Shown here: piece by piece, positions 21,546 to 53,897 of the stretch
Numbering within the stretch: the stretch's first letter is position 1
How the letters are laid out: each line of letters starts with the position of its first letter
Source of the DNA: Leucoraja erinacea
Taxonomy: Eukaryota
Length of the DNA: 64,000 nt
Assembly (NCBI RefSeq): GCF_028641065.1
Contig: NC_073400.1
Span: forward strand, 5,332,001-5,396,000
Reading direction: 5' to 3'
Program-made: the position numbers and the translations under genes
The notes under the pieces: model-generated
The model's database searches: none
What the model saw: the letters and a program-made list of their open reading frames with translations, nothing else
Told to the model about the DNA's origin: nothing

Positions 21546-21859
21546 CAGGGAAATAGTGACTAAAGAATCTGTACGAGACAGAATGAGGAGCACCCTGGAA
21601 TGGACATGTAAAACACAGTAAATATGGGGCAGATGTAGGATGAACATGGAGCATCTAAAAATACTGCTCCCTTTGATCCCTTTGTTAAAACGCAAGGTTA
21701 GGGTATAACTCTGGAGATTACTCACGATATATCTAGTGAGATTTGGAATTTACACAGTAAATAAGTTGTTACTGTCATATATTGGTGGAAAACTGCAGAC
21801 AGCACAGTTGAGAGCTTTGACTGACAATGATGTGAAAGCTGCACCTATACCAGCTTGAC

Positions 21860-23280
21860 AACATATTTCCTATAACATGATAACTAAAACTGAACATAAT
21901 ACTCCAACTGTGGGCTCACCATCAACTTGTACAGTTATAACATAGCATCCCAACTTCTATACTCAAAACCCTGACTGATGAAGGCCAATGTACTGAAAGC
22001 CTTCCTGACCACCTTATTAGAATTAGAATTAGATTCCTTTATTGTCATTCAGACCTTTCGGTCTGAACGAAATTATGTTGCCTGCAGTCATACACAGAAC
22101 CAATAAAAACAAAACATACAATAAACACAAATTAAACATCCACCACAGTGAGTTCACCAAGCACATCCTCACTGTGATGGAGGCAAAGTCTTAGTATCCG
22201 TCTCTTCCCTCCTTGTTCTCCCTCTGCGCTGAGGCGATTGATCCAGGCCGGAGATCCCGCTATCCAGTCCAGCGGACATCCGTGGTGATGTCGCCGCTGC
22301 CGAAAGCCGGAACGCCGTCTCCGCTCCGAGACGGCCCGTCACAGCATCCTGGCAGCCGCCCCAGCTCCGGGTCCCGCAGTCTCCGCTGCGGGCCACCGCC
22401 CCAGTTCCGGGTCCCGCAGTCTCCGCTCTGGGCCGCCGCCCCAGCTCCGGGTCCCACAGTCTCTGCTGCAGGCCACCGCCCCAGCTCCGGGCAGCCGCCC
22501 CAGCTCCAGGTCCCGCAGTCTCCGCTCAGGGCCGCTGCCCCAGCTCCGGGTCAAGCAGTCTCAGCACCGAGCCCCGCTGCATCAGCTCCAGGCCACCGCC
22601 GAAAGCCAGAACGCCGCACCAGCAAGTCGGGCCACCGCTGCATCAGCCCCGAAGACGGCCAGCCTCTCGTTGGTGAGTCCTGGCTGGCTCTGCCTCCGGA
22701 GCCTCGGGGTCAGTCGCAGGCTGGAGGCCGCCAGCTCCGCCATTAGGCCTCAGCGCAGATGGAGGCAGAGAAGGAGGATACGACACGAAAAAGTCGCATT
22801 CCCCCGAAGGAAGAGACAGAGAACATGTTTCACCACCCCCCCCCCCCCCCTCTAACACAACCCAACAAACTAAAACTTAACCAAAACAAGACAAAAAAAC
22901 CAACAGAAAAAAGTAAAGACAGACGGACTGCAGGCGAGCCGCAGCTGTTAACAGCGTCGCCACTTCCGGCCACTTATCTACCTGTGACGCCACTTTCAAG
23001 GAACTATGTACCTGCACTCCTAGATCCCTCTGCTCTACGATACTCCCCAGAGCACTGCCATTTACTGTGAAGGTTCTGCCCTGGTTAGACTTCGCAAAAT
23101 GCAACGTCTTACATTAAGCTGCATTAAACTCCATTACCCATTGCTCCTCCCCACTTGCCCAACTGATAAGATCCTGCTGTAACCTCTTATAACCATCTTC
23201 TCAATCTACAATACCACCCACTTTTGTGTCATCTGCAAACTTACTTACTGTACTTACTGTACCTCATCCAAATCATTGAT
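21860..23280 (-). mobile_element. Old CR1 fragment split by the 22017-22969 insertion
   Basis: ORF 22877-23104 MHFAKSNQGRTFTVNG..EQRDLGVQVHSSLKVASQVDK continues at ~22015-21860. Confidence 0.75.
22017..22969 (-). mobile_element. ~950-bp non-autonomous retroposon with Rex1-like 3' end and GC-rich 40-bp tandem core
   Basis: 5' CCGGAAGTGGCG; 40-bp unit x4-5 at 22355-22550; 3' hairpin, TGACAATAAA and (TTCTAA)n tail; approximate TSD CAC(C)TTAT. Confidence 0.7.
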
Positions 23281-24385: not shown

Positions 24386-25642
24386 TCAAACAAACATTCG
24401 CTCATTGAGTACCGAAAGCTGAACGAGATGTCAGACTATTTAGAAACTGTAGAGGGTTGGGTTAGATGGTTTTGTGGAAGGCTATTGATGGCTATTTTGT
24501 ACACCAATGCTATTTGTGTTCATCTCAGAACAGATGCTGTGCTTTTGGATAGCATTGTTAAGGAAACTCCTAGATGTGAAATGGGAAGAGTCAAGAATGT
24601 GCCTTTGGGGGATATGAGAGTTGACAGTGTTGGAATGGGAAGATAATTCATTCCCAGTGTTTCCTTGCAACAGAGATAAGAGTGGAACTTGGTGAATGTG
24701 AACCATCCAACTGGATAACGATGGATGGACACTGGAGGATCTAACTCTTCTTCATCTTTTATTCAAGTTCAACAAACTGTGTGGTTGTTGCTTCACGGTT
24801 GTTTTTCAAAAAATATGGTTAGACTCAATTCCTCCATGAGCAAGCTCAGAGAATAATGATGACATGTTAATTGTTACTCTTTCCACAGATGCTGTCTGAC
24901 CTGCTGGGTTTTTCCTAGCATTTTCTGTTTTTTTTCTTCTCAGAATTCCAGAATCTGCAGTTTTGTTTTATCATTAGACGTCTAAAAATCCAACCTTCAA
25001 TTCTATCCCCCTCCACCACTTGAGGGGGATTGGGAACACTTTTACGAATGAAAATGGCAGTAAAGTCTGTTGATCGCCAGTCACCATGGGGGAACAGAAT
25101 TAGGACACTTCCATATTCATTAGAGTCATATTTCACCACCAAAAAACAATTACCTGAATATAGTGCGCTAAACAATCTAACAGGACAGCAGAATGAGTGA
25201 AATATTTCTTTATATTTCCTTTGGGATTTTGTTGAGTTTTGTGTAAATGGTTCACACTATTAAATTGCTGATGAAATACTGTTCACTGTGATAACTGATG
25301 CAAATTGATTTATAAATCATTAACCGCTTGAGGCTTGTGTTTCCTTTGCATGTTTTGACCATGTGTCTGTTGTCTGCTCCACATCTGATACCAATCTCCC
25401 TGCACTGGCACCTTGCCTGATGCAGAATTCAACAGATGTTTAAATGTTAAAATTATGTTAAATGCTATTTTTGTTTCTTGTTAAATGACCGAATGTTAAA
25501 GCCATTGACTCTCGGCAAAGTAATGCAGATGACATGAGCATAGAAAAAGGAGAGGACAATTTAGACCTTTTATTTGTTGAGATCATAACATGGTTCTACA
25601 TATCTTTGCCCCATCACTTAAAAAATGTGGGCAATCAACAAT

Positions 25643-29639: not shown

Positions 29640-29845
29640 TGAGCAAAGCTCAAAGTGCAGGAAGAACTCAGTGGGTCAGGCAGCATTTTTGGAGGGAAGG
29701 GAGAGGTGGCGTTTCGGGTCAGGATCCTTCTTCAGACTTGAAATGTCACCAGTCCATTCCCTTCACAGATGTTGCCTGACCTGCTGAGTTTCTCCCACAT
29801 TTTCTGTTTTGCTCAAGATTCCAGCATCTACTTTTCCTTATGTCT
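29640..29845. mobile_element. Older PLE fold-back repeat
   Basis: Degenerate inverted arms around GTTTCGGGTCAGGATCCTTCTTCAGAC. Confidence 0.65.
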
Positions 29846-32489
29846 CCAGTGATCTCAATGGATTGGATCAAGGTGCTGAATGGTTTTTATCTTGTTCCTA
29901 GATTGCAATATTGGCAGGTTTCTTTTGTTTTGTTGCATCTACAAGCAGAGAGACAAAAGTAGACTATACATACAGCTTCTTTATTGAAGACTGTAACTTT
30001 CAAATAATGTAATTTTTCTGCAGTCATACTGTGGTTATAGAAATCAAATCTTAAAGGTAACTCCAACACATACACTATAATACTTTGATAAGATTCTACA
30101 ATACTGTTAGGTTGTGAATTCTAGGATTTTTTTACACAACAAGATGTTGAATGGCTTGGAGGAAAACACAGGTGAGGTAATTGAGAGGCCAATGACCTGT
30201 AATATTAACTCTGCTCTCCTTCCACAGATGCTGCCTGACCTGCCGGGTATTTCCAGCATTTTCTGTTTTTATTTTAGACGCGATGATGTTTCCTTGCACC
30301 TGCTGCCCTTGGCGACAGAGGTCGGAGATTTGAGAGGTGCGGCCAATAAGGCCCTGAGAGAGGGAGGTGAAACATTCACAGTGATAGCTGGATTACACTG
30401 CAAGGTTGTGGCCAATGTGAACCAGTTCTCCATTCTCATTCTCCACATTGTGCCGTGCATTTTTAGCAGGCTGGAGGACAATTTATTGGGGCTGAAGTAG
30501 GAGACAGAGACCCGCGGAAGGGATACCGTTTCTTCTCTCTGTTTAAACTTGACCAGCAGCGAGTTCAACATTGTTCTTAAAGTCAAAAATAAAAGAATTG
30601 ACTGCCATCAGCAGCCAGTGAACAGAACATCACGCACACAGGCCAACTATCCCTGGGAAGTGTGATAAAGGCGCCTGCAATGTAACTCATTATTATTTAT
30701 TCATATCTTTGAGGATCTGGGCCATCGTTGACAAGGCCAGCATTCACTCCCTGTCCCTCATTGCCTTTGACCTTGCTAGTCAATGCAGATTTAACCACAT
30801 TGGTGCAATATGAAGTCATAGAACAGCATTCATGAACCTTATGGATTTTTACATTGTTATGTGATTATTTTTCAAAATAAAATTTCCGTATTATTAATTG
30901 GAATGAAGTAGCACAGCTGCCAAGGTTGGATTTTTGAACACTGACATTTAGCGTGTTAAAATTGGATTTCTCGTCCTATAACCATAGAACTAACACTATA
31001 TCCACTCTTTGCATTAAATTCAGGGATAGATTCAAGATCTTTCAGCAGGGAAGCAGAGGACAGCCGCTAATGGTTAAAACTGGAACCACAAGCACATCTA
31101 TAACCGGAAATGTTTAATAGAATTTCTTTTAAACGGCGCTTATCCTGGGGCATTAGAGAAATTTATTTTCATTCCATTCATCCCACACGCAGACTTTTAC
31201 CATTTATTTTCTCATGAAGGGTGTCAAGTTGCACTTACATAATTTATGGAAGGCATCTAACTGTTAACATAGACGCGTAAACAGCAGTAAATCTGTGGCA
31301 GTCCCTCATTCACCAAGAGACACGTTATGTCACGGACTGATTTCACATCACATTCTGGGCTTTGCTGTACTGTGCTAACGCTATTATTTCACCCAGTTCC
31401 TCTCTCACGGTATTTCAGCCTCATTCTCTCTCTTTATTCATTAGCAGGATTGCTGGGAAGGCTGACGTTTATTGTCCATCCTTCATTGCCTTTGGGAAAG
31501 TGGCAGTGAGCCACCATCCATCCATCCATTGTATTTCATCTGGTGAGGATATGCCCACAGTGAAAAGGGAGTTCCAGGATTTAGACTGCAGGATAATGAC
31601 AGAAGAATGATATATTTCCAAGTCAGCGTGGTGTGCAGCATGTCATGGTAATCCCATGTTCTGCTTTGTTAGGTCTGGAGGTTACAGGGTTGGTGAGTTC
31701 TGCAAGAAGCCATGGGGAGTTGCTGCAGTGCATTGTGTAGATGGTGCACAGTGTAGTCATGGTGCATCAGTGGTGAAAAGAGTTCATGTTGAGGGTGTGA
31801 ATCATTCCTGCCTGCTTCTCAGTTCCTGGAGCCTCTATCCTGGTCGATAGCTCTTTGAAAACAAGGCTCAGCCACTGAAGCAGTTCGCAAAAGCTTCCTG
31901 TTTCACATCTTCCCATCTCCCTGACTCGCATTATCCTGCATTCCTGATCTAATTCACGTGCCTTTCACGGAAACAATAACTGATCTTGCAGCTTCCAGAA
32001 AGCCTTCTACAAAATTAATGGTACAGTCCGTTTTGCAGTTTACTTTTAGGGAACATTTGGTGTTTTCCCTTTTCTCACTGAACGTGCCTCGCATAACCTG
32101 GCATCTATCTGTAGATACCTCACTCTGCCATTCTAAACTTGTTTGTGAAGACAATGGATGACTGGCTGTAAGCTTTTTGATCGCAAGGAACATTGATTTC
32201 AAAGCCACAGGTTGTCCTCACCTGACCCAGCATCTGCCATACGTTCTCGTCATCTGTGGTCATTGGCTAATCATGGGGTATATTCGAAACCACAGTGAGA
32301 GTAATCAAGGGGGGAGGGGGATTGGGGGGGGGGGGGGGGGAGGTTCTGTGGAACTAAATATTGATTCATTCAAATGTAAGTCGTCAGATTTCTCTCAGAT
32401 AATAACATGTTGGAATACAGAAGAGGAGTAAGTTGAGATGTCATCATAATTATAATCCATGTATGTGCTTTGTGCCTGTGGTTGATTAG

Positions 32490-32627: not shown

Positions 32628-33358
32628 CCTATTAATAGTGTGGGTTTGTTGAAGACATTGGTCGCAATGATTAATAAGGTGTTTACAAAGGCAACCTCTT
32701 CATTGTCTGGAGATCTGCCCCGAATGAACACAGAAGGGATGGGTGTGGTGTTCAAGGGAGGAAGCATGAATGGTGTTGATGCATTACAAGGGAATGTGTT
32801 GAACGGATGGTGCATTGAATGTGGAGAATGACATATATATTCCTGGTTGTGTTCACTCTATGTATTATGAATAAAATATTTTTCTGGTAAAAAGAACGAA
32901 GGTGTTTTGTAAGGGAAAGAAGCGGAAGGATTGGTGAAGGAATTTCAGATATTAGATCCTTGGCAACTGAAGGCAAGTGGTGGATGTACAGGGAGAGAGA
33001 TAGTTGAGGCTTTGGAAATACGCATGGCTTGAGAAAGCTGCAGGGAGAGGGGACGATAGGGCCATGGAAGATTTGAAAACAAAAATTTGAATTCTGAAAC
33101 TTTCCATACCTTAAAATATCCTCCGAGACAAAAGACTATCAATATCAGGACTAAACATTCCAACTGACTCCCAATATCCACAGCATCTTGGAGCTGGAAT
33201 CTCCAGATGCACATCCTCCATTCTGTGAAAAAATGCTTTAAATCCTGAAAGATTTAATTCCAATACCCCCCCAATTCACTTTCACCCTCTAAGGAAATAA
33301 TCAACACCGCTGAATCTCTTTATCAATTTGATTAACTGGAACTCGCATTATACTATGT

Positions 33359-33564
33359 GTAGGAAGGAACTGCAGATGCTGGTTTACACCAAAGATAGAC
33401 ACACAATGCTGGGGTAACTCAGCAGGACAGGCAGCATCTCTGGAGAGAAGGAATGGGTGCAGTTTCGGGTCTGAAGAAGGGTCTCAAACCGAGACGTCAC
33501 CCATTCCTTCTCTCTGGATATGTTGCATGTCCTGCTGAGTTACCCCAGCATTTGTGTCTATTTT
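33359..33564. mobile_element. PLE fold-back insert with 13-bp TSD
   Basis: CATTATACTATGT at 33346-33358 and 33565-33577. Inverted arms meet at TTTCGGGT|CTGAAGAAGGG. Confidence 0.88.
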
Positions 33565-33629
33565 CATTATACTATGTTAGTTGTGGCCATGATTGGAAAT
33601 AGCAACCGTAAGATATAGAGTGATGAGAA

Positions 33630-33643
33630 GGGGGTGGGGGGAT

Positions 33644-33689
<46 letters not shown>

Positions 33690-33693
33690 GGGG
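33630..33693 (+). repeat. Long poly-G tract (G-quadruplex potential)
   Basis: About 45 consecutive G. Other G/C runs at ~2025-2048, 4484-4507, 7878-7898, 22834-22850, 32310-32343 and 54648-54707. Confidence 0.85.
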
Positions 33694-34403
33694 TCTGGAT
33701 TAGCGCTGGGGTAGAAATAAAGCCTTTTCCTTCACAGTTTCTGACAGGGACCTATGCAAATAATTTCAACTAGTCACAGCTTGAATTATCTCTGTTTGAC
33801 TTTTCACCAGTTTGCCTCTGGAAATATTTATATCTTCTTATTACTGTTTACACATCTCGACACAGAGGCATGCTCCAACCAGTGACTTGAGGAGATGAGC
33901 CCGCTGCCTGAACTCTTGTAAAACTCTTGCCCTGTTCACATATGTTTACGTAGCGATGAAAACACAGTTGTTGATCAAAACAGCTCTGATGGAACATTCA
34001 TATTTTCCCTGGACTTATCCATACATGGAACCAAATCCTTGTGCCTCTGCAGTTTCCACTTGAAAACAACATCATGCTGCTGGGGTCCAGATGTAAATGA
34101 AACAATATTTTAATTTATATAATCCCCTTATGACACTGAATGTCATTTAAAGCAATAAAGGACTTTTTGAGTGAAGTCGCTTCTGTTAAGTAGGAAATAT
34201 TGAGGTCACTTTGTACGGAGCAAGATTTCTTAGACAGCAACCCTCATAATGGCCTGATAATGGCCTCACATGAGACAGCAAACTGATGGTGCATGGGTGG
34301 TATTGGGCATGGCTGGTTAGTGCTTGGCCTTCCTGCTGCTATGTTCCATCATAAACAGTCCACACACCCAGTCCACACACACGCACAAACATCATTTCTG
34401 TAG

Positions 34404-34580
34404 GCAGGCACAAAATGCTGGAGTGACTCAGTGGGGCAGGCAGCATCTCTGGAGAGAGACGTTTCAGTCGAGACCCTTCAGTCCAAAGAGACCCTTCTTC
34501 CGTCTGAAGGGTCCCGCTGAGTTGCTCCAGCATTTTGTGTCACCCTTAGATGTAAACCAGCATCTGCAGTTCCTTCCTAC
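34404..34580. mobile_element. PLE fold-back insert with 15-bp TSD
   Basis: ACATCATTTCTGTAG at 34389-34403 and 34581-34595. Confidence 0.88.
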
Positions 34581-35369
34581 ACATCATTTCTGTAGAATTA
34601 GTTAATGGAAATCAAGGCCTAGATCATAAGGGTCGTTAGGTCATAAGGGATAGGAGTATGCTGCACGACCCACTGATTTTCTCCAGCACCTCTCATTATT
34701 TTATTTATGATGAAAATCAAATAGATCATGGGTAACGTGCCATGGGTTGCTCAGGTGGCAGAATTGAGAGACACTTGTTGAGTGATGAGGAGATGTGGAC
34801 TAGGAGCTTGGGGAATAGAGTCTTGTCAAAAGATTGTGTCAGGACATTGGATTAATTGGACATTGCTCATGTCGAGAGAGGAGATATATGAGCACAAGGA
34901 GTGGAAGGGAGACTGGGAGTGTGATCTAACTGGGGTCTGAAGATTGGGGCATTGGGTACATATCACACTGTCCGTGAATGATATCAGCAAAGAGGTTTAG
35001 AAATGAGAGCAAGTTACAACGTTAAAGAGGACTATCCTTTGAAAAGACCTAATGGCCATCATTGTATGTGTCTGAAGCCGGCCTCTACTGCCCTGGACCT
35101 GATCAGTGTCTGTGGCATTTCCTATGCTGCTTACAGACTAGTTATGTGAAAATGAATTTTTTGCAAGTAACATCAAAATGTGTGTTGCACATTGATTGAG
35201 ATGACTAGGAGTGCCAGTGGCCTCCGTGCATTGTGCCAAATAAATAAAGGACACACAAGTAGTTTTGGGGGCTGCATGTTAAGGACACATTAAGGATGCA
35301 ATTAAGCATTTTGACCAGGACACCTGCAGAAGCATAAGAACATTAAAAACCAAAGCCAGAGTAGGAAAA

Positions 35370-35895
35370 TTCACCCTAATTTGAGGAAGGACATTCTGGC
35401 TATTGAGGGAGTGCAGCGTAGGTTTACAAGGTTAATTCCCGGGATGGCGGGACTGTCATATGCTGAGAGAATGGAGCAGCTGGGCTTGTACACTCTGGAG
35501 TTTAGAAGGATGAGAGGATATCTCATTGAAACATACAAGAAACATACGCTAGAGGCAAGAAACATGTTCCCGATGTTGGGGGAGTTAAGAACCAGGGGCC
35601 ACAGTTTAAGAATAAGGAGTAAGCCATTTAGAATGGAGAAGAGGAAACACTTTTTCCTCACAGAGAGTGGTGAGTCTGTGGAATTCTCTGCCTCAGAGGG
35701 TGGAGGAGGCGGGTTCTCTGGATGCTTTCAAGAGAGAGCTAGATGGGGTTCTTAAAAATAGCAGAGTCAGGGGGTATGGGGAGAAGGCAGGAACGGGGTA
35801 CTGATTGGGGATGATCAGCCATGATCACATTGAATGGCGGTGCTGGCTCAAAGGGCCAAATGGCCTACTCCTGCACCTATTGTCTATTGTCTATT
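35370..35895 (+). mobile_element. CR1 3' fragment
   Basis: RKDILAIEGVQRRFTRLIPGM...; (TATTGTC)n tail. Confidence 0.92.
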
Positions 35896-36338
35896 ATTAT
35901 TATCTAAAATTGACCCCTTGAGCTTGCTACGCCATTCTATAAGGTCCAATCTTGGTTTCACCACCATTTCCCCACTCTCTCCCCATAATCCTTGACTCTC
36001 TTGAAGTTCAAGCATTTCCACCTCAAAAATATTCAATGACTGTCTTCACACTCTCAGGGGCAAGAATTCCAATGATTCACAAAACACTGAAAGAACAAAT
36101 CTGCATCATTTCCATCTTAAACGGAACATCACCTATTCTAAAACTGTCTGTTATTTCTAGATAGTCTCATTAGGGATATATCCTCTAACATTCACCCCCT
36201 CAGAATCTTACGCTTTTCTATAAAATCATGTTGTGTTATTTGCCTAACTTTCAGTGAGTATAGTCCCAACCTCTCTAATACTTCAATCTCTTCATCACAG
36301 GAATCATCCCTATGAACCTTCCTGCACTGCTCTAATGC

Positions 36339-36897
36339 ATGTTGTACAGGGCTCTGGTGAGACCACATCTGGAGTATTGCATGCAGTGTTGGTCTCCTAA
36401 CTTGAGAACGGACATACTGTTCACGAGGTTAATCCCCGGGATGGCGGGACTGTCATGTGAGGAAAGATTGGAAAGACTGGGCTTGTATTCACTGGAATTT
36501 AGAAGGATGAGAGGGAATCTGAGAGAAACATAAAATTATCAAAGGACTGGACAAGCTAGATGCAGGAAACATGTTCCCAATGTTTTGGAAGTCCAGAACT
36601 AGGGGGCCACAGTCTAAGAATAAAGGGAAGGCCATTTAAAACTGAGATGAGAAAAAAGTTTTCACCCAAAGAGTTGTGAATTTGTGGAATTCTCGGCCGC
36701 AGAAGGCAGTGGAGGCCAATTCACTGGATGAATTTAAAAGAGAGTTAGATAGAGCTCTTGGGGCTAGCGGAATCAAGGGTTATGAGGAGAAGGCAGGCAC
36801 GAGTTACTGATTGTGGATGATCAGCCATGATCACAATGAATGATGGTGCTGGCTCGAAGGGCTGAATGGCCTACTCCTACTTCTATGTTTCTATGTA
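36339..36897 (+). mobile_element. CR1 3' fragment inside an older opposite-strand CR1 (~35900-37030)
   Basis: LYRALVRPHLEYCMQCWSP...; (TTCTATGT)n tail. Confidence 0.9.
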
Positions 36898-37095
36898 TCC
36901 TTCCGTGAACATGGACATCAAAACAATGCACAGCACTTCAGATTTGGTATCTATACTTTTAAACTCTATAGCTATTGTAATAAAAGCCAGTATTACATAA
37001 GCCTTCCTGATTATTTGCTGTCCCTGTACAATATATAAGTACATACATACATCAATAAAGAAAAAAAAAGAGACACAATGTAGTATATAGACTAT

Positions 37096-37249
37096 GCAGG
37101 AAGGAACTACAGATGCTGGTTAAACCGAAGATAGCCACAAAAAGCTGGAGTAACTCAGCGGTTCAGACAGCATCCCTGGAGAAAATCTATTCCTTTTCTC
37201 CAGAGATGCTGTCTGACCCCCTGAGTTACTCCAGCTTTTTGTGTCTACC
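37096..37249. mobile_element. PLE fold-back insert lacking the hammerhead core
   Basis: Inverted arms, with near-duplicated flanks TGTAGTATATAGACT / TGTAATATATAGTCT. Confidence 0.75.
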
Positions 37250-37954
37250 TGTAATATATAGTCTTACAGCTAGAATAAAGTACAGATAAAATAGTGCAAG
37301 GACTGTAATGGGATAGATTGAGAGATCAAGAATTTATCTTGAATTATACTGCAACATTTTGTGGTCTCTTTGTTCTTAATATTTCCTTCCAAAGTGGATA
37401 ACCACATATTTTCTTCCATTCATATTATGTTCCATCTACGCACTCCCTTGTATCAGTTTGCAGTCTCTTTGTGTCTTACTTACAACTTGTTAACCCAACT
37501 ATCTTCATACCATGAACAGATCAGGTTACATTACACTTGCTCCCTCACTCACATCATTAAAATGGACTGTACGCAGTTAAAGCTCCAGCATTGATTCCTG
37601 TGGGACCCCATTAGCTGTTCATGTTTAATCCAACAATGACCAATTTATCTTGATTTTCTGTATTTTGTTCATTACTCAATCTTGTACCCATGCCAATATT
37701 TTACTCGTAACCCTGCACGCTCTTAACTATTTATGTAAACATTTATGTGACACCATGCCAAATAGCTTATATACCCTACATCTACTAGCTTACCTTTATC
37801 TATCCTGTTTGTTACATAGTGTCCATGCTGATCACCTATCAATAGTGTGTTCCAGATGGCAAACAATTACTGGGTGAAAAATATTATTTATTCAGACTAA
37901 CTCGTTTACTCCTGAGTGTAAGGTTTTGCTCGTGGGTGTTAGATGCGTCTGTCA

Positions 37955-39211
37955 AGGGCCTGTCCCACTAACATGACTTTTCAGCAACTGTATTCGACCT
38001 TCAAGATCGCCTGAAAGGACTNNNNNNNNNNNNNNNNNNNNNNNNNNNNNNNNNNNNNNNNNNNNNNNNNNNNNNNNNNNNNNNNNNNNNNNNNNNNNNN
38101 NNNNNNNNNNNNNNNNNNNNNNNNNNNNNNNNNNNNNNNNNNNNNNNNNNNNNNNNNNNNNNNNNNNNNNNNNNNNNNNNNNNNNNNNNNNNNNNNNNNN
38201 NNNNNNNNNNNNNNNNNNNNNNNNNNNNNNNNNNNNNNNNNNNNNNNNNNNNNNNNNNNNNNNNNNNNNNNNNNNNNNNNNNNNNNNNNNNNNNNNNNNN
38301 NNNNNNNNNNNNNNNNNNNNNNNNNNNNNNNNNNNNNNNNNNNNNNNNNNNNNNNNNNNNNNNNNNNNNNNNNNNNNNNNNNNNNNNNNNNNNNNNNNNN
38401 NNNNNNNNNNNNNNNNNNNNNNNNNNNNNNNNNNNNNNNNNNNNNNNNNNNNNNNNNNNNNNNNNNNNNNNNNNNNNNNNNNNNNNNNNNNNNNNNNNNN
38501 NNNNNNNNNNNNNNNNNNNNNNNNNNNNNNNNNNNNNNNNNNNNNNNNNNNNNNNNNNNNNNNNNNNNNNNNNNNNNNNNNNNNNNNNNNNNNNNNNNNN
38601 NNNNNNNNNNNNNNNNNNNNNNNNNNNNNNNNNNNNNNNNNNNNNNNNNNNNGAAAGCGGGGGAGCGCTGTCTGAAATTCACACCCGCGATGAACAGGAA
38701 GGTAAAAGACGGCTGGCACAGTGTACGGTAAGTCCTTTAGTGAGCGCGGAGGGGAGGGGGAGGAGGAAAGGAGGGGAAGGGAAGAGAAGGGGAGAGAGAA
38801 AGGGAGAGCGAAGGGGAGGGAAGGGGAGGCGAAGGAGAGGAGACACTTTTAAGAAGCCAGCCAACTTTTAATAAGGTTTAGCAGGCATTTAACCTACCGG
38901 TTGGTTTTTCTTGGTTCCGAAAACTCCAATGAGCCAATTAAAATGCACAGTCAGTGAAGGAGATTGCCTACGGCTGCCCTCGACTGCCTGTAACTACATA
39001 GCGACCCCACTCCACTGCACTACGAGTTCAAAAGAACCATGCCGACCAATATTTACTCGCGGAAAAGTTTTCAGTATGCGGGAAATTCCCTCGAGCATGA
39101 AGGAGAGTTCCAGTGACCTCCTAGGACCACGTGTCGACCATTCTGCCAGTTTGAGTCCAGCTCAATCTCTTCTAAACTCGCAAATTAGGTCCCCGCAGTG
39201 GGACAGCCCCT
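37955..39211. mobile_element. Harbinger-type MITE ends spanning an assembly gap
   Basis: Left AGGGCCTGTCCCACT and right AGTGGGACAGCCCCT-TTA. May be two elements because of the gap. Confidence 0.6.
38022..38652. other. Assembly gap (N)
   Basis: Run of N. Confidence 1.
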
Positions 39212-40864
39212 TTATCATGAAAGGTTGCTCACTCTCCAGCTTATCAGTGCCCCTCATATTTTCTGCACCTACATCAGATCCTCCTCTGCCAAACCCAATC
39301 ACTCCATGGTCTCTTGGGAACTGGAAGGTCCATCCTTGGTCTGCATCCTGGTAAATCTCCTCCGCACCCTGCACAGTGGAGTTATGTAGTTCATGCAATG
39401 TGCTATTCAGAACACATGCAATATTCCAGTTACAGCCTTTGCCGTGATGTCTATGCTGTTATATTATATGCTGCAGGGCAATGAAGGCCAGCACCCCAGA
39501 TCTTTCACATCCATCTGAAAGAGCGGATACGGCCAACAGGGAACTCAAACAGTGCAGCACTTGCATTGAAAGGTGACTGTCTGGGGTTTCACACCAATCT
39601 TTACAGAGCCGAGTCTGAACGAAGAACCTACTGACTAAAAAGCATCTGTGTTACCAGCTGAATCAAAGCTAATAGATGATGCTAGTTTATTACCTGTGAA
39701 GGAACTGATTGAGGATCAGTTCTCTTAGTGTGAAGATTCATGCTGTGGACAAGTCTCACAGCTGATAGATTGTCCTGCCCTCAGTATTCCTGGCATCATG
39801 TGAAGATTTCCTGCAATTTAAGGAGCCCTATCTGCATATGAAATGTCTTTCTATTCTGGATATTGCCTCTGTTAATTATAATAAAACTAACGTCCATGGG
39901 CAAGTGATTGTTGGCTTGATGGGTCGAATAAAGCAGGACATTTTGTTTCCTTTGAGGCACTGAGTAACTACTGTTAGTAACAGGAATCTACAGCCCAGTG
40001 ATTGACCATTGACTTTAACAATGCTGCACGCTGCATCAGTTTCCTCCCTCGCCTTGTTGTGTAACATAGTGAAATAACCTTTGGTCCACTCTCTTCCCCC
40101 TGTTTATCTAGCTTGCTACTAAAGGCGTCTACATCTGTTTCACAAATACTCATTGCAGCAGTATGTTCTCCATTCCCCCTGCTCCACCATTCTCCACGTG
40201 AAGAAGTTGCTTTTGAAAGTAACGCACAAACTTTTCCGCACTGACTATTCAACAGAAGACATTCTGGATAGATACTGGGGGGTATCGCCCTGCTCACTAG
40301 TTCCTGTGAGGGGAACTTCCACTTCATTCTCCATAGCAGTGTGTATGTCTGTGTCTGTGTGTGGCATCACTTTAATTCACAATTTTTGGCTTTCCAGAAG
40401 TAATTTCCAGGAATTGGCGTGATGGCAAGTACTCAGCGCCTCACAGCTCATGAGCAAAGCTGACATTCTGCAGGCTGTTGGCTTGCTGTTGCACCACTTA
40501 AAATGCACAGACAGCAATTCCAGCCAAGGATCTGTGCATTTTGCGTTTAACTGCAGGAGATCTGCGGCAGTGTGCGGAATGAACAGCGCTCAGTGGGGTT
40601 ACAGTCTCTGGAGCTGAGCCCCTGAATTACAGGAGGAATGCGTATTGTAAGGGAGAAGCTGCTGGAAGAGGAAGGAATGCAGAGCGGGAATAAAGGAAAG
40701 GAAGGAAAAGACTTGCATTTATGAACTTTCATCTCACTTGCTCATGCAATTGTGCTCAAGAATAATTCATTATTTTTCTAATTTTACTAATGAGAACACT
40801 CTCACATGGAGGTCGTCTTTGACCTTGGTGATGTGAGATACAATCACTAATTCTGGTTCTTCCT

Positions 40865-41735
40865 CTTCTTGATAGGTAGCACCATGAACAATGATGAGAC
40901 GGAGTACAGAAAGGAGATAGCGGACTTAGTGATACGGTGTCAGGGAAACGACGTCTCCCTCAATGTCAGCAAGACAAAAGAGTTAGTTGTTGACTTCGGG
41001 AAGCATGGTGGTACATTCCCCATCACCATCGATGTGGATGTGGAATGATCTGCCATGGACCAATGATCTGCCATGGACCACCCACATCGATGCAACAGCC
41101 AAGAAGACACACCAATGCCTCTACTTCCCGAGGAGACTGAGGAAATTCGGCATGTCCCCAGTGACTCTGTCTCATTAACGTCTGCAGATGCTCCATGTCG
41201 GGTTGCATCACAGCTTGGTTTGAGAACGGCTCTGCCCAAGACTGGAAGAAATTGCAGAGAGTTGTTGATGTAGCCCCGTCAGTCCATCACACAGACCAGA
41301 TTTCTCACCACTGCCTCCATCTACACTTCACGCTGCCTCGGGAAAAGCAGCCAAAATAATCAAAGACTAGTCCCACTCTGGTCAAGCCTTCCTTTCCCTG
41401 CTCCCATCTGGCAGACGTTACAGAAGGTTGAAAGCACGCACCACCACACCGAGGAACAGCTTCTTCCCTTTGTTATAAAGCTTCTGAACGGTCATTCCAT
41501 AATATAGGATACCGTTTGCTTCACCTCCTCCACATTGAGGGCATTGTACTTTGTCTAAGGAACTGATGCGCTACAAAGCTGAGAACTCTATTCTACACTC
41601 TGTATCTTCCCCATTGCTCTATCTATTGTACTGGAGTTTGAACCTTATTATATCTATGTATGTTATATCTGATCTTTGGATAGCATGCAAAACAAAGCTT
41701 TCAGATGTGCCTTGGTACACATAACATTAATAAAC
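40865..41735 (+). mobile_element. Decayed Rex1/Babar LINE 3' part
   Basis: Remnants NNDETEYRKEIADLV..SLNVSKTKELVVDFGK.., LLPSGRRY-like end, AATAAA tail. Same clade as 61675-64000. Confidence 0.8.
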
Positions 41736-41935
41736 CTAAACATAAATCTGCTTTTCTCCTCCTTCACCTCCACCGTCATCTCATCACTCACCTTTTGGGT
41801 CCCTATCTTGCCCCAATCCTGTCCGCATCTATACACCGTCCCTCCCTCTGGCCCTACATTTCCCACCTTTCTTTCCTATCACATTCAAAGATCTGCAGCT
41901 CTTTGCATTCTTCACATATCATCCCCATTTCAGTA

Positions 41936-42231
41936 GGGATGGCACAGCGGTAGAGTTGCTGCCTTACAGCGCCAGAGACCCGCGTTTGATTCTGACTACG
42001 GGCGCTGTCTGTTAGGAGTTTGCACGTTCTCCCTGTGTCGGCGCGGGTTAACTCTGGTGCTCCGGTTTCGTCCCACATCCGAAAGGCGTGCAGGTTGGTA
42101 GTTAATTGGCTTCTGTAAATTGTCCTTAGTGTGTAGGATAGTAACTGGAGTCTGGGATGATCACTGGTCGGCGTGGATTCAATGGGCCGAAGGACCTATT
42201 TCTGTACTGTATCTCTAAAGTAGAGTCTAAA
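41936..42231 (+). mobile_element. HE1-like V-SINE inserted in a decayed PLE 3' UTR (~41740-42470)
   Basis: tRNA head GGCACAGCGGTAGAGTTGCTGCC, V-domain, CR1-like tail. Confidence 0.85.
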
Positions 42232-42528
42232 GAGTATCTTCACCTTTCTCACACCACCGTTTACATCTACCAATCAAACCCTCTTCATCTGGTCCCACCG
42301 ATCACTTGCCAGTTCCTGCTCTTTCTACCAGCAATTATCCCTCGACTCCAGAAGCAAGGTCCTCATTTAAATGGTCATCTGTCCATTTCCCTCCACGGAT
42401 GCCGCCTGGCCCACTGAGTGACTCCAGCAGATTGTTTTTGCAAGATTCCAGCACCTGCAGTCTCTTCTCTCTGCATTGGGGTCCTTATCTGTACTAATAC
42501 TACTATTTAAATATAATTTATCATAACA

Positions 42529-43062
42529 TCTGAGGAAGGACATTATTGCCATAGAGGGAGTGCAGAGACGGTTCACCAGACTGATTCCTGGGATGTCAGG
42601 ACTGTCTTATGAAGAAAGACTGGATAGACTTGGTTTATACTCTCTAGAATTTAGAAGATTGAGAGGGGATCTTATAGAAACTTACAAAATTCTTTAAGGG
42701 GTTGGACAGGCTAGATGCAGGAAGATTGTTCCCGATGTTGGGGAAGTCCAGGACAAGGGGTCACAGCTTAAGGATAAAGGGGAAATCCTTTAAAACCGAG
42801 ATGAGAAGAACTTTTTTCACACAGAGAGTGGTGAATCTCTGGAACTCTCTGCCACAGAGGGTAGTTGAGGCCAGTTCATTGGCTATATTTAAGAGGGAGT
42901 TAGATGTGGCCCTTGTGGCTAAGGGGATCAGGGGGTATGGAGAGAAGGCAGGTACAGGATACTGAGTTGGATGATCAGCCATGATAATATTGAATGGCGG
43001 TGCAGGCTCGAAGGACCGAATGGCCTACTCCTGCACCTAATTTCTATGTTTCTATGTTTCTA
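42529..43062 (+). mobile_element. CR1 3' fragment, near-identical to 2849-3380 in inverted orientation
   Basis: Same C-terminal peptide, about 4 differences seen in ~530 bp, flanked by ATAACAT duplication. Confidence 0.95.
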
Positions 43063-43167
43063 TAACATAGGCAAACATGACAGTGAACATGAGCTAATTG
43101 TATTTATTTAATTCTTAATGTATTCATTTGACAATGCCACAGGACAATGAGCTAAATGACCAAAGAG

Positions 43168-43355
43168 TTTTGGTAGGAACTGCAGATGCTGGTTTAAACG
43201 GAAGATAGACACAAAAGGCTGGAGTAACTTGGCGGGACAGGCAGCATCTCTGGAGAGAAGGAATGGGTGCGTTTCAAGTCGAGACCTTCTTCAGTCCTTT
43301 TCCTTTTCTTCAGAGAAGCTGTCCGACTCCTCCGAGCTATTCCAGCTTTTTGTGT
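43168..43355. mobile_element. PLE fold-back insert with ~16-bp TSD
   Basis: CTAAATGACCAAAGAG (43152-43167) and CTAAATAACCAAAGAG (43356-43371). Confidence 0.8.
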
Positions 43356-44217
43356 CTAAATAACCAAAGAGCCTGTCTTGGTGATGTCTTAATACTAGTC
43401 CGTTTTAACTCATGCTTTGGACACTTTTACATCCACCTCCACACTCAGAGCAAGGTTGAACTTCTCATTCATAAGAAACCATCTTTGACGGAACTGTTTT
43501 TATTCATTAATGCTCCAAATCATCACGGATGCAAGTTAAATATTTTTTCTACAGATTTCCTCAGAAGAATTATTCTCTTCATGTCAAGAAAATGAACAGA
43601 TTTTTATTATCTCGACAGACGGTTAAATGGCCTTTAATCCACCACATGCAGTTCAGATAATAATTGAACAAAACGAGCAACAAAAGTATGCAGTCATTGT
43701 CAATTTATAAAGGCACGGTATAATCGAGCCATAGGCTCATACAACATGGACCCAGGCCCTTTGGCCCAACTTTCCCATGCTGACCAAGATGCTTCCACCT
43801 GCGCACGTTTGGCCTATATCCCTCTAACCACTTTCTTATCCGTATACCTGTCCAAATGTCACGTAAATGTTATTATAGTACCATATGCCCACCACCCTTT
43901 GTGTGAAAAGGTTGCCCCGCAGGTTACTATTAAATCTTGGTGGATTCCCCTTTGCAGATATTCATCTTCTTTACTTGGAGACTCCAGAAAAATTCAGAAG
44001 GTTAGGAGACTACCCTAATTACCATTAAAAATTCGATTGAAATTTGCAATGGAATATGCTGAAAGTTATCATCTCCCACTGACATCATGAGGAAAATATG
44101 TGTCTACCATCAACTAGGCCAAAGGAACATTAAAATTGGCACGCTCCCCCTCTCACTTCTGCTGCTTTTCTTCCGTACCATTTGAAACCAGAAAAGTTTT
44201 CTTTGAAAAAAACTTAC

Positions 44218-44438
44218 TACGTAACATTACTTTGCCAAATACAGTGTGGTCCCTGGCCAGGGTGCTACAGTTCCACCTGTGATGCCGGAATTGCTGCTGG
44301 CATTCCCGAATCCACTCCAAGGCTCCTTCCCCTATTGATTGCATGATGTCAGGATGCTTCTGACACAACTGCCGCTGCTTGTTCACCAGTCCTGGGATGT
44401 TGTCACAGATCACACGAGCTCCCAGAGCCCCAATATAC
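44218..44438 (-). CDS. wnt2b: wnt2b coding exon 2 (221 nt)
   Basis: CAG acceptor 44441-44439. Encodes (W)[79 protein letters not shown] donor at 44217-44212. Confidence 0.97.
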
Positions 44439-44634
44439 CTGCGGGCGAGATCAGTTCAGTCAGATCACATAACTGCTTTAAAACAGCACCAATACAGTTT
44501 CAAATAAATTGCTGAAAATCAGACAATCGTGGAAAACAAAAATGCATATTCATTGCCATAGGAATGTTATGAATTAGCCCTGCTTCTGAACCCACACCTT
44601 ATGCAAATGTTTTTTTGTAAATATCTATTGTATC

Positions 44635-44812
44635 TGATGTATTCAAGGGACAGTTGGATATAGCTCTTGGGGCTAGCGGAATCAAGGGATATGGGGAGAA
44701 AGCAGGAACGGGGTACTGATTGTGGATGATCAGCCATGATCATATCGAATGGCGGTGCTGGCTCGAAGGGCCGAATGGCCAGCACCTGCACCTATTTTCT
44801 ACGTTTCTATGT
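44635..44812 (+). mobile_element. Short CR1 3' end
   Basis: GGATATGGGGAGAAAGCAGG..GGCTCGAAGGGCCGAATGGCC, with TTCTATGT tail. Confidence 0.85.
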
Positions 44813-44961
44813 TTTTATTCAGTTTTCCTTTGAAACATTCTATGCAATCTAATTTCCTTTCAGGCTGTGTGTTCCAGATCAATAGGTAACACAACTAGAT
44901 AGAGTGGAAGTGAAGGCATATAATTAGCTTGCCTTCATTCATTGAGACATTGTGCTGAAGA

Positions 44962-45160
44962 GTGTAGGAAGGAAGGTGCTGGTTTAAACCGAAGATAGAC
45001 ACAAAATGCTGGAGTAACTCAGCGGGATAGGCAACATTTCTGGAGAGAAGGAATGGGTGACGTTTTGGGTCTGAAGAAGTGTCTCGATCCGAAACGTCAC
45101 TCATTCCTTCTCCCCAGAGATGCTGCCTGGCCCACTGAGTTACTCCAGCATTTGATGTTT
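44962..45160. mobile_element. PLE fold-back insert
   Basis: Inverted arms with junction TTTTGGGT|CTGAAGAAG, the same junction as at 33470. Confidence 0.85.
45067..45102 (+). ncRNA. Minimal type I hammerhead motif with a stem I created by the fold-back junction
   Basis: GGGT-CTGAAGA-AGTGTCTCGATCC-GAAAC-GTC-ACTC. Stem I GGGT/ACTC; stem II has a mismatch. Confidence 0.55.
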
Positions 45161-46399
45161 ATCATTGAATTGAAGAATCATGAGCCATGATATGATTGTC
45201 TAATCTGAGAAGCCTCTGATGTCCCTGACAGTGGAATGGGCTCCAATTATTCGCTGCATGTATGTCCTTCATCATTTTTAATTTGACTTCTCCAGCCATT
45301 TAACCCTGTCCTGAGTGTTTAGGTTCAATTTTGACCATCAGTGGTGAAGGATGACGGTAGTGGATTAACTGGCCAACTGGACAGTGGATCCAGGACACGA
45401 GGGTGGCCAGTTTATCTTCACTCACTGATCTCCACTGGTACCAGGGAAAAGGTATTATCTTAAAGTTCTTAAGTCCTACCAACTACCATCTAGTCTTGCC
45501 TCCCATGCCACCTTATCAAGTAAGACCATTGGGCATGGGCTAACAAGCCTTGCATTCACCTTCCCCTTCACTCAGCAAAGATGATGTGACATGAGAGAAT
45601 AATTATAGAACATAAAACATAAAACAGTACAGCACAGCAACAGACTCTTTGGCCCTTTATGTTTGTGTCGACCATGATGCCTATCTAAACTAATTCCATC
45701 TGCCAGCATATCCCCTCTATTCTCTGCCTGTTCATGTACCTGTATAAATGCCTCTTAAACATCGCTATGACATTTGCTTCCCCTCCATTGGCAGTGAGTC
45801 CCAGTCACCTCTGTGTAAAAACTTGGAAATGTCCTTTAAACTTGCCTTATCTCACCTTATGCCCTCTGCCCTCTCCAGTTGACAGCTGCCCTTGATGGTT
45901 CCACTGGGGAAAGCGCCTGTCCATTTATCTACACCCTATCCATGCCTGTCATAAATGTTACACCAATCTTGTCAACCCTCAGATAAGACAGGCCCTTTCC
46001 CCTCACCACACAACATTCAGTATCCTGGTGAAAGCCAGTGATGGGTTTAGAAACCAAGACCATTCTTCCAAGAGCCGTACGTGGGTTCATCATGTAGACA
46101 TCATGAGGAAGGATCAGTTTTCCACATGTGTCCTTTCCTGGTGAGTGGAGGGCAAGGCAAGGGTCTACTTGCCCCATTAGAACCAATTTTCCCCATCTAC
46201 CTTTGAAGCCAACAGCACAGAGATGTCATTCCACCCGTCTTCTATGCGTTGGGCCTCAGTCAGATGAATACCTGGATATGTGGGAGATTTTGTCACACCA
46301 AGTGTGGCTGTGTATAAAGTGTGCAATCAATGGGTGTGCACTCAATGGTGAAATACTGTCAGATCTTGGGGTGGGGGCTAGTTGGTTGGATGAGATTAC

Positions 46400-46565
46400 T
46401 TGTGTGGGAAGGAACTGCAGATGTTGGTTTCAACCGGAGATAGGTACAAAAAGTTGAAGTAACTCAGCGGTACAGGCAGCATCTCTGGAGAAGGGGAATA
46501 GGTGACGTTTCGGGTCGAGGCCCTTCTTCCGACTGAGAGTCAGGGGAGAGTGAAATGGAAAAGAT
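46400..46565 (-). mobile_element. PLE terminal repeat (core mutated to CGGAAGA)
   Basis: Recurrent repeat plus the start of the PLE 3' UTR (GAGAGTCAGGGGAGAG). Confidence 0.75.
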
Positions 46566-46950
46566 TACTTGTTGAAAGCTAGGGGCTGACAGAAAATAAA
46601 GTGATTTAAAACGAACCCTGACCCTTGGCTGGCAACCTCTCTGCAAGCTGCTCTCTCCAAAACCCCCACTCCAATTATTTAGAAGAGGGTGTGTGAAGCC
46701 GCCTCCTCTGGAAAGGGAAGAGACTCATGGAGCACAATGAAGCACGAGGCGTGTGCAGTGGCTGGCTGTCCGCTGCATGAATAAGAGCAATCCTTTGAGC
46801 AAGTTGTAGGAGTAGAATGAGGCCATTCGGCCCATCGAGTGTCCTCCGCCATTCAATCATGGCTGATCTTGTGGAGCTGTAGCTGAGGGGCAATTACAAT
46901 GCCCGTGTTGTCAGCTGCTGCATGAGCGAGGCAGATGCCCCACCCCCCAT

Positions 46951-49400: not shown

Positions 49401-50212
49401 AAATGTTCTCTCCTGTAGAAGCAGCATGAACAATGAAAAATGTTGACATTTCTCAATCAATTGCATGTGAAGGAAGGATTTCCAACATCACTGAAGGATT
49501 TTGCTCATGGGGTCTCCGTGCGTTTCCTGGTGAGAAACTGTCAACAATATCGGAGACTGGGTTATCTCCGAAATGACCTGAAATTCAATCACCTCGACAT
49601 GGGTGTAGGTTATATGGATTCTGTGTTTTACTCAAACAGAAGCACATCAAGGGCATTTACAGGCTGTGCTGTAGATAATGCGGAACTGGCATGTAAGGCA
49701 AGATCTGAAGTGTTGAATGTGTTTTTTAATTCGAGGGATTTTCTGTCATTGTAACTCTGAGGAATCTTTGACTATAGTAATATTAAAAATCACGTCACAA
49801 TTTGGAATAGAAAATAAGATAAAAGCAACAGAGAGAAAGTCAAAAGGGGGGGAATGGCAAACTCTGGTGATCAAATGTAATTTAAGAAACTTCTCTTAAG
49901 GGTTGGGGGAAATGCAATATCGATTGATGGGATATGGTGAGCATATTTGTGGAGGGAATTTGACATATTTGGAATCAGTGACGAGTCTTAGTTAGAAAAA
50001 TCATAGAGTCATGGAGCATGGAAACAGGTCCTTCAGCCAAACGCTCCATGCAGACCAAGATACCTAACCAGACTAACCCAACTTGATTGCATCTAACCAA
50101 TATCCCTCCAAACCTGTCCCATCCGATAGGAGAGCAAAGGATATGGAGATAGACACAAAAATCTGGAGTAACTCAGCAGGACAGGCAGCATCTCTGGAGA
50201 GAAGGAATGGGT

Positions 50213-50240
50213 GACGTTTCGGGTCGAGACCCTTCTTCAG
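50213..50240 (-). ncRNA. Consensus minimal hammerhead core within a PLE repeat (50145-50245), sense to wnt2b intron 1
   Basis: Minus strand reads CTGAAGA-A-GGGTC-TC-GACCC-GAAAC-GTC: intact core, perfect stem II, palindromic ACGT loop III and GUC cleavage triplet. Stem I is weak. Confidence 0.6.
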
Positions 50241-51706
50241 ATTGGTTAGGGATAAGGGAAACAAGATATATGGAGTGCAGGTAAACAACGTCAGGAATAC
50301 GAATAAAGGAGTAATGTTGAGGGAGACACAAGAGGCTGCAAACTGCTGGAGGAACTCAGGAGGTCAGGCAGCATTTGTGGAAGGAAATGGACAGATGACG
50401 TTTCAGGTGGGGACCATTCTTTGGACCCTCTGAGAGTTAGTGGACAGGAGCATTATGTGTGATCTGTGGCATTACGGACAGACGAGGAGGGTGGAGATAG
50501 GGTACGTGGGAAGAGCAATGGAGAAAGCAAATCACAGTGAAGAACATAAACAGAAGCGTTTGAATCACGAGTCACTAAGATTAAGATTAAGGCAAATTAA
50601 TTTTAAAAGGTTGGAAATGAACAATCCTCGAATTGGAAGATCACTTGTGGGGAGACCAGGGCACAATCAGGTTCAACGTGTGAGTGCTTGGTTGTGATGG
50701 AGTTGCTGGGGGGGGCATAAACTGTGAGTTATATCCCAATTATCCCACAGCAGGGAGATGCTCCCACAAACTGCAATGTGATAATCATGCAGTCTACTTC
50801 TGGGAATGCTGCTGAGGATATACATTGGGCAGGATTCTGGAGAAAACGACCTGTTTTTCTTCAAAACAGAGCCACTGAGTTCTTGATGGACACACCAGGG
50901 GCAACTGGGGCTTCCACCTAACGCCACCTCTAACATAGCACCACCTCCTCAATCCTCCTTAAGTCTCTGGAGTGTCACTTTAACCCATGACCTTCTGATT
51001 CAGAGGCAAGTGTGGTACTGACTGAGCCTTGAGAGAAAGGGTGGGGGGAATTAGGCTCGAGGACCCCAGTTATAGTGCAGCTATTTATAATTTTGCCCTG
51101 AGATGTCATGGGGCTGGCGATCAAAATATGCTCAAACAAGGAGTATGAAACATTACAACGACAATTACATCATTTCCCCAAATGGTCTCTATGTGAACGA
51201 CCTTGCGCATCTTAACATATCAATGTAACCTGGCCCTTTCTCCTTACATACCCAACTCCCCACCATCTGTGATATGCATCGCAATTATCTAGCAGCAAAT
51301 TTCACATTATTACATTGGGTAAAAATATTATTTCTGATTTCTGTATGGGAATTTATAACCATTGTCTATCGTATAAAGGAGATCCCCAGAAGTCACCTTC
51401 CCCACATACTCACTCATCTCTATGTCTGCTCTATCGAGCCCTTTCACTAATACAAAGATACTTGTCGAGTCACCTGTCAGCCTTCGCATTTTAAGAAGAC
51501 AATTTCAGGGCCATTCAGTCTTTACAGGTAAAAGTTCTCCGTTTCAGAATCACCCACTCAGATTTATTTTGCATCTTTACCCACGCCTCGAAATCTTTCT
51601 CATAATGTAGTTATTATTTTTAAATAATGGAAATGTCTACCTGTAAACCTTCCAGCTAAAAAAAAACAATGGACTCTGGTCCTGAATGTAAATGATTTGG
51701 ACTTAC

Positions 51707-53046: not shown

Positions 53047-53897
53047 AACATACACACATGTATACACACTCACATGCACACACACACACACACGCATACT
53101 CACACAAACACACACACACATGCACACATACACACATACTCACATACAATACAATACAACACCATTTATTTGTCATTTGAACCTCACATGAAGTTCAAAC
53201 GAAATTTGGTTTCTGCAGCCATACAAGAAAAGAACCAAGACACACACCAACACAATTGACACAAACATCCATCACAGTGAATCTCCTCCTCACTGTGATG
53301 GAAGGCAAAGTCTTGTCTCTCCCCTGCTCTCCATTCCTTTCCCGAAGTCAAAGCCCCCGGCGGGCGCTAGCAATGCACACATGCTCGCACACACGCACGC
53401 ACACACACGCGCACATGCACACAAGCATACTGGAAGTCACGCACACATGCATGCACGCACACATGCACGCCAGCTTTTTTGTGTAACCTGCATGCACGCA
53501 TGCACATGCACTCAAACACACGCATGCACACGCACACATACACATACTGAAACACACGTACAAACACACCATGTACACACACACACACTCATGCACACAC
53601 ACGCGCACATGCACACAAGCATACTCGAATACATGCACACATGCATGCACGCACAGTGTTTAAGAGGGAACTGCAGATGGTGGAGAATCGAAGGTTACAC
53701 AAAAAAGCTTGAGTAACTCAGCGGGTGCAGCAGCATCTATGGAGCGAAGGAAATAGGCAACGTTTCGGGCCGAAACCCTTCTTCGTCTGAAACACAGTAC
53801 GTGTGTTTTGTGTAACCTGCATGCACGCACACATGCACACGCATACTCAAACACACGCATGCACACGCACACACACACGCACATACACATACTCAAA
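53047..53897. repeat. CA-rich array with inserted retroposon end (53148-53370) and PLE repeat (53658-53790)
   Basis: (CA)n/(CATG) repeats, with block TTTGTGTAACCTGCATGCACGCA at both ~53478 and ~53807. Confidence 0.85.

Follow-up and report, generated by a model that had tools for sequence, protein, structure and literature searches.

A 64,000-nt stretch of the Leucoraja erinacea genome (contig NC_073400.1, positions 5,332,001 to 5,396,000; hereafter the window, with coordinates counted from its first letter) contains 42 arm-length matches of a ~100-nt repeat, which we identify from its sequence context as the pseudo-long terminal repeat (pLTR) of a Penelope-like element (PLE). The matches fall into 33 loci, nine of which are head-to-head pairs, or fold-back hairpins. 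We put at about 0.6 the probability that these hairpins are two inverted PLE 3′ ends, likely made anew at each insertion by microhomology joining, and that J1, a junction shared by several of them, is probably a by-product of this process rather than a functional ribozyme. The repeat begins with a minimal type I hammerhead ribozyme (HHR; CUGAAGA, stem II, GAAAC-GUC) and ends with an optional tail of ~35 nt.

Fold-back inserts sharing a junction

At 33359–33564 and 44962–45162 two pLTR arms stand head to head and are joined at the same point, GGGTC/TGAAG (J1), where they share the GTC at 33469–33471 and 45069–45071, respectively; this common junction had been recognized in an earlier note on this DNA. 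The first insert consists of a truncated arm with the ~35-nt tail (33359–33471, minus strand), which ends at GGGTC, a stem II complement, and a full tail-less arm (33469–33564, plus strand), whose minimal hammerhead has the core GAAA changed to GAGA and a damaged stem II. The 13-bp target-site duplication (TSD) previously noted around it is exact (33346–33358 and 33565–33577, plus strand). In the second insert, a truncated arm with a tail (44962–45071, minus strand) meets a full tail-less arm (45069–45162, plus strand) with an intact core and stem II down to one contiguous pair; here only a weak 14-bp TSD candidate with 3 mismatches was found (44948–44961/45163–45176). A third J1 fold-back, which the earlier note had overlooked, lies in mirror orientation at 29646–29839 (minus strand; joint at 29734–29736); it belongs to an older subfamily, is CpG-decayed and has lost the cleavage triplet. 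The tail is carried by the truncated arm in all three J1 copies. P0006, a translated copy that comes from other data and belongs to the old subfamily, also falls on the J1 diagonal, in the same register. Under a uniform null two matching junctions alone are not unusual (P 0.16–0.64), while P is 0.003–0.055 for three. A run of ~50 G at 33636–33690, 70 bp from the first insert, may be a sequencing artefact.

Fold-back inserts measure 160–210 bp and consist entirely of two pLTR ends. A TSD around the whole unit is clear (12–16 bp) in four of the nine, weak in one, and was not found in the other four. None of the nine pairs has a tail on both arms.

Proposed origin of the fold-backs

An insert of this kind, head to head, with a one-sided tail and within a TSD, would result from two cDNAs growing inward. 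The purified PLE protein PAc cleaves and extends both target strands, and its two reverse transcription starts bound the tail (PMC11167929). If the skate element behaves like this Poseidon-clade enzyme does in vitro, its protein would nick both target strands and use each of them for reverse transcription, which could begin at one or the other end of the tail. One arm usually reaches the 5′ edge of the hammerhead (GTCTGAAG). The 3′ end of that arm, GAC, would then anneal to the only GTC in the other cDNA to give J1, and other short matches would lead to other joints. The transcript of J1 is predicted to fold as a plain long duplex that hides GAAAC-GUC. Inverted 5′-truncated copies with a one-sided tail and a TSD are known for PLEs (PMC3846280, PMC8557442).

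A cDNA that ends in GAC has only one 3-nt partner, GGGTC, and J1 occurs in two subfamilies, which supports one of two origins offered earlier, reproducible joining at the GTC microhomology. Since no other 3-nt match exists for the full-length cDNA end, J1 is most likely a microhomology joint that recurs, rather than a master element or a ribozyme under selection. From cDNA ends shortened by one base or lengthened by two, TCTG and CAG joints are predicted, and both were seen, the latter (3 nt) in the translated relative P0013 and the former in sequencing data (4 nt shared, 50192–50241, in all three DNA runs described below).

Three DNA runs from three organisms and one RNA run were mapped on the near-consensus linear pLTR copy at 50144–50242 (minus strand), which also served as the reference for coordinates. 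This gave 212,126–264,636 contig records each and 425 joint types, with some joints uncounted. The pLTR family is thus extremely abundant, the contig records exceeding 200,000 in the DNA run of each of the three organisms. The ten strand-changing joints listed have one arm running to 50237–50241 and the other ending at 50192–50207, in all three organisms. Both orientations were covered almost equally in the RNA run (51,016 reads, ~5% of the run; oligo-dT).

Two further fold-backs bear on the number of templates. The insert at 43172–43358 (minus strand), joined in the cleavage-site register, with the tail on the full arm and a 16-bp TSD (1 mismatch), has arms that are discordant at five of six subfamily columns; arms from two subfamilies inside one TSD point to two templates. 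The arms of the tail-less insert at 14246–14410 (minus strand), whose truncated arm stops 1 nt from the cleavage site, differ at only 4 of 64 columns (94% complementary) and have four non-consensus bases in common, which suggests one template.

Several observations weigh against microhomology joining of freshly made cDNAs. The enzyme data come from a different PLE clade. The best-supported joint listed (50200–50241) has a microhomology of 0–1 nt, and J1 is absent among the best 15 of 425 joint types, where a display or filter bias is possible; this absence is inconclusive because the joints listed all have at least 34 nt between their ends and J1 has 16–18. Private bases were shared in 2 of 8 within-copy and 27 of 443 between-copy arm pairs, a difference that is not significant (p=0.105), so that the evidence for one template is suggestive only; in the copies at 44962 and 9585 the arms share no private base. 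J1 could equally be obtained by a 17-nt deletion between the two GTCs of a symmetric hairpin, and such a hairpin exists (P0011). Finally, the second hotspot, discussed below, fits its 2-nt GT match exactly in no copy.

J1 is predicted to bury the ribozyme

The earlier note had proposed that J1 supplies a stem I that the hammerhead otherwise lacks. On paper such a stem exists locally (GGGU/ACCC), with 4 contiguous bp in the copy at 33359 and 5 bp with wobbles in that at 44962. For linear copies, to which ~2 bp had been ascribed, the stem measured 2 bp and 1 bp in the two of eight whose core could be parsed. The inverted arms, which were thought to extend the stem, would have to loop out 12 nt to do so, and in folding predictions the plain duplex wins: the penalty for the hammerhead fold is 21.7 kcal/mol for 33359, 36.7 for 44962, 14.1 for the third copy and 32.5 for an idealised junction. 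With a predicted hammerhead-fold fraction of 1e-16 to 1e-26, the arms out-compete the hammerhead in silico, the very outcome that the note had named as refuting its claim. The apparent stem I arises because ACCC is present both in stem II and directly after the cleavage site: GGGU is complementary to the ACCC of stem II itself, and a complement of GAAACGUC lies in the antisense arm as well.

The predicted fold depends on the length of the antisense arm. With 5 nt of it the hammerhead is the minimum-energy structure, with 10 nt its fraction falls to 2e-6, and with the full arm to 1e-23. When 53 possible joints were scanned by folding, J1 was among the unfavourable positions (1e-23), and the sole joint that combined a free core with a long stem I was at the cleavage site, 12 nt further out (fraction 0.44). 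Stem III cannot form in the J1 monomer; minimal PLE hammerhead monomers lack stem III, and dimers are reportedly needed (PMC4209133; PMC6765202). The core or stem II is damaged in all three J1 copies of the window, and the J1 strand with the tail at its 3′-end does not contain CUGAAGA. On the predicted fraction and the impossible stem III, an active monomeric hammerhead at J1 is not expected. J1 is predicted to bury the ribozyme (GAAAC-GUC) rather than to complete it, and rescue is predicted not to work.

Competing explanations for J1

The main rival is likewise non-adaptive. J1 and the other joints could have arisen by later deletion within a symmetric hairpin whose centre is the quasi-palindrome TCAG(T/A)CTGA at the hammerhead 5′ edge; in long palindromes the part between short repeats at the centre would be lost, and a loss of 17 nt between the two GTCs gives J1 exactly. 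The symmetric centre does exist, as P0011 lies on its diagonal and remnants are found at 34490–34510 and 53776–53792, and both palindromes at inverted PLE junctions and microhomology deletions are described in PMC3846280. Intact symmetric hairpins are, however, absent from the nine fold-backs of the window, and deletion does not predict that the tail should be on the truncated arm in all three J1 copies, a weak point, since chance alone would give this in 1 case of 4. We consider this origin unlikely. Self-priming has also been proposed for inverted PLE junctions (PMC3846280), but the tail polarity that it predicts is the reverse of that seen at J1. Snap-back of a tail-primed cDNA in its simple form was rejected for J1, since the tail would then lie on the full arm, which was seen in none of three copies. 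An origin of J1 as a GT-AG splice product was rejected as well, since a spliced product would have two Gs ahead of TCTGAAG, whereas three are found in both young copies.

The other origin offered in the earlier note is a self-complementary master that amplifies as a unit in the manner of a retrozyme or a miniature inverted-repeat transposable element (MITE); such a non-autonomous master would cleave itself via the 4-bp stem I. Several points favour it. The J1 register is common to three window copies and one outside copy with the same tail polarity in all three of the former, the copies at 33359 and 44962 both belong to the main young subfamily, the variants alone would leave a consensus-like master possible, and the hammerhead does become the minimum-energy structure once the antisense arm is cut to 5 nt. 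Against it stand the steep predicted loss of the fold with longer arms, the lack of a monomer stem III and of CUGAAGA in the 3′-tailed strand, and the variants. J1 spans young (33359, 44962) and old (29646–29839, P0006) subfamilies, and the check for diagnostic single-nucleotide variants that the note had suggested gave no shared private variant in 12 between-copy J1 arm pairs (three copies). Many other junctions occur besides: among ten translated relatives eight are fold-backs, of which the six that could be placed lie on five diagonals, and J1 accounts for one of the eight despite a J1 query, although these are protein-level cluster representatives and the count is not a frequency. A single master of this kind is not supported by these data, and we regard it as very improbable. 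Searched by word index against proteins, the translated junction found 1 and 0 matches, and sequence-pattern scans gave none in viral contigs, none in metagenome contigs (twice) and one in a bacterial genome contig, taken as chance. Fold-back chimeras are a known sequencing artefact and the window contains gaps, so that the hairpins might have been created during library construction or assembly. This is already largely refuted and hardly credible, given that TSDs flank the whole hairpin in four of nine copies, that arms differ at 4–20 positions, and that contigs of three organisms, as well as raw RNA reads, contain strand-changing joints.

The second junction and the cleavage site

A second recurrent junction claimed in the earlier note, CTTCAGTCC, is indeed present at 14335, 43286 and 34475. 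The joints themselves are not identical among copies: the sense arm resumes one base apart in the inserts at 14246 and 43172, and 34475 lies within a rearranged fold-back with a 15-bp TSD (34401–34583), which also holds the first of the symmetric-centre remnants mentioned above. The remaining fold-backs are those at 37095–37250 (both arms truncated, the sense arm beginning at the cleavage site; 12-bp TSD, 1 mismatch), at 9585–9796 (a different junction, GAGACCC/AAGGG) and at 56242–56339, which is decayed and whose junction is possibly, with some uncertainty, in the cleavage-site register. A purine run at the centre of the latter (56299–56315) is possibly an A-to-G altered hammerhead start, or filler.

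This second hotspot, on the minus strand, might be set by the fold or the cleavage of the ribozyme, a doubtful explanation that would be compatible with microhomology joining at J1. Either cDNA synthesis would run off on RNA self-cleaved at GUC, or a full-length cDNA would snap back along the symmetry axis of the hammerhead (stem II plus a 2-bp stem I). Truncated arms end at 50211–50212 of the reference, next to the cleavage site at 50212/50213, in the copies at 14246, 43172, 37095 and possibly 56242; for three of ten ends in a 3-nt window P is 0.01–0.025, the window having been picked after the data were seen. Those at 43172 and 56242 and the translated copies P0008 and P0014 lie on the symmetry-axis diagonal, and 14246 is one base off. 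Moreover, in the scan above a free core together with a long stem I occurs in the cleavage register alone, the minus strand of 43172 folds in this way, and the high complementarity and common non-consensus bases of 14246 are what snap-back predicts. On the other side, no copy matches the ideal cleavage-register junction exactly (14246 and 43172 have A for the required T, plus further damage), a 2-nt GT microhomology coincides with the hotspot, and the two subfamilies in the arms of 43172 are contrary to snap-back. There is also no read-end pile-up in the oligo-dT RNA run, a weak test of self-cleavage at GUC; the depth step at 50225–50226 (337/26,072) is within the range of neighbouring steps, and possible end trimming precludes a firm bound. 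In addition, HHR cleavage is dispensable for PAc insertion in vitro (PMC11167929).

The arm ends at the cleavage site and the symmetry-axis diagonals make the second junction (minus strand) the one near a true long stem I. Tentatively, and with the odds well against it, it could be a genomic footprint of a working Penelope hammerhead, with cDNA arms that stop at GUC and join on the symmetry axis. If so, fossil copies by the hundreds of thousands would preserve a record of ribozyme self-cleavage in vivo, or of self-priming guided by the fold, as Penelope transposes.

Relation to known systems

The fold-back arrangement itself has already been described, and the recurrence of J1 most likely comes from microhomology. 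Like the canonical inverted-pLTR insertions of endonuclease-containing (EN+) PLEs, as presented in PMC3846280, PMC8557442 and PMC8969392, the inserts have head-to-head pLTRs of which one is 5′-truncated, a hammerhead in the pLTR, a 30–40-bp tail on one end, a TSD and a short overlap or palindrome at the junction. The skate family shows the pLTR downstream of the open reading frame (ORF), the inverted 5′-truncated copy, the one-sided tail and the TSD of this class. Unlike those insertions, the fold-backs here comprise only two pLTR ends, occur ~9 times per 64 kb, and have joints that recur at a few exact registers. The hammerhead resembles the minimal type I hammerheads of metazoan PLEs described in PMC4209133 (CUGANGA, one unpaired base, stem II, GAAAC-GUC with palindromic ACGU, no stem III), including the 2-bp helix I of the D. 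virilis variant; the difference is that at J1 the antisense arm is predicted to pair with the core and so mask it. L1 twin priming and the proposed dual priming (PMC2837659) similarly involve two opposite target-primed cDNAs in one TSD with little or no central microhomology, although the enzyme class is another one, both cDNAs here span the same 100 nt and so give a long hairpin, and there is no poly(A).

Animal non-LTR retrozymes, as described in a preprint (bioRxiv 10.64898/2026.07.22.740005), are also PLE-derived, non-coding, equipped with a type I hammerhead and present in a chondrichthyan. They are organised as head-to-tail tandems in which two or more units have a complete hammerhead, whereas the fold-backs are head to head, with at most one sense hammerhead, so that assignment to this class was rejected. 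A MITE of the DNA transposon type was likewise rejected, as the tail is one-sided and the TSD measures 12–16 bp, versus matched terminal inverted repeats and a short fixed TSD. Joints leading from 50241 to 50147 represent head-to-tail repeats of a 95-nt tail-less monomer (37, 47 and 39 contigs in the three organisms), and those from 50241 to 50206 repeat the 36-nt hammerhead part in the same head-to-tail manner. Dimeric hammerheads could arise from such repeats, which resemble retrozymes more closely than the fold-backs do.

In literature outside subscription papers, repeat databases and the supplements of the retrozyme preprint, we found no account of exact junction hotspots or of this pLTR family. 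Earlier work (PMC3846280, PMC8557442, PMC11167929) leaves open how PLEs make their inverted structures and what purpose the hammerhead serves. As the family is so abundant, counting junctions across the assembly would be an inexpensive way to test dual priming, self-priming and ribozyme cleavage.

The parent element and other copies

The repeat is identified as a pLTR, on sequence grounds, because the copy at 60095–60222 follows a 3′ untranslated region (UTR) and a Penelope-like ORF (60440–60964). Together they make up a decayed, 5′-truncated element of the parent type (60095–61060, minus strand) with the C-terminus of the endonuclease, the 3′ UTR, the pLTR with its hammerhead, and the tail. 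The ORF is 57% identical across 168 aa to a ray protein, P0001. P0001 has a GIY-YIG match below the Pfam cut-off (E 4.6e-4), such sub-threshold matches were found in all three relatives scanned, and the window ORF itself gave no Pfam match. All four named protein relatives are from cartilaginous fish. A CxxxxCxxC motif (Cys-rich linker), present in P0001 and P0003 and partly decayed in the window ORF, suggests that the parent element may belong to the Neptune clade. P0001–P0004 are fragments of the element's ORF annotated within host gene models of rays, skate and shark.

In the near-consensus copy at 50144 the features of a minimal type I hammerhead (CUGANGA, GAAA, NUH, stem II) are all intact; an Rfam search returned no hammerhead match up to E 1, the matches being generic hairpins. 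Copies that retain the 3′ UTR have a pyrimidine-rich tract (72–85%) 5′ of the hammerhead (60223–60262, 46534–46573, 50242–50281 and 18018–18060, minus strand). In the copies at 60095 and 46401 this tract ends in CAG immediately before TCTGAAG, resembling a 3′ splice site. In D. virilis, helix I starts where an intron end has been mapped (PMC4209133), and by analogy splicing could provide the real stem I partner.

Linear solo pLTRs at 56571–56691 (without tail) and 17457–17620 (with tail) start at the 5′ edge of the hammerhead, inside TSDs of 14–15 bp. Remnants of another, still older pLTR family, which differs in sequence near the cleavage site, are found at 13960–14008, 24877–24962 and 30189–30274.

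Other inverted repeats are also present. An unrelated element with GGGCCTGTCCCAC-like ends occurs at 6263–6860 and 14105–14570; its arms at 6263–6837 measure 93–129 nt and are 95–96% complementary, and the fold-back at 14246 is inserted within a copy related to this element. Inverted arms of 121 nt at 21307–21989, 80% complementary and 441 nt apart, resemble fragments of a long interspersed nuclear element (LINE).

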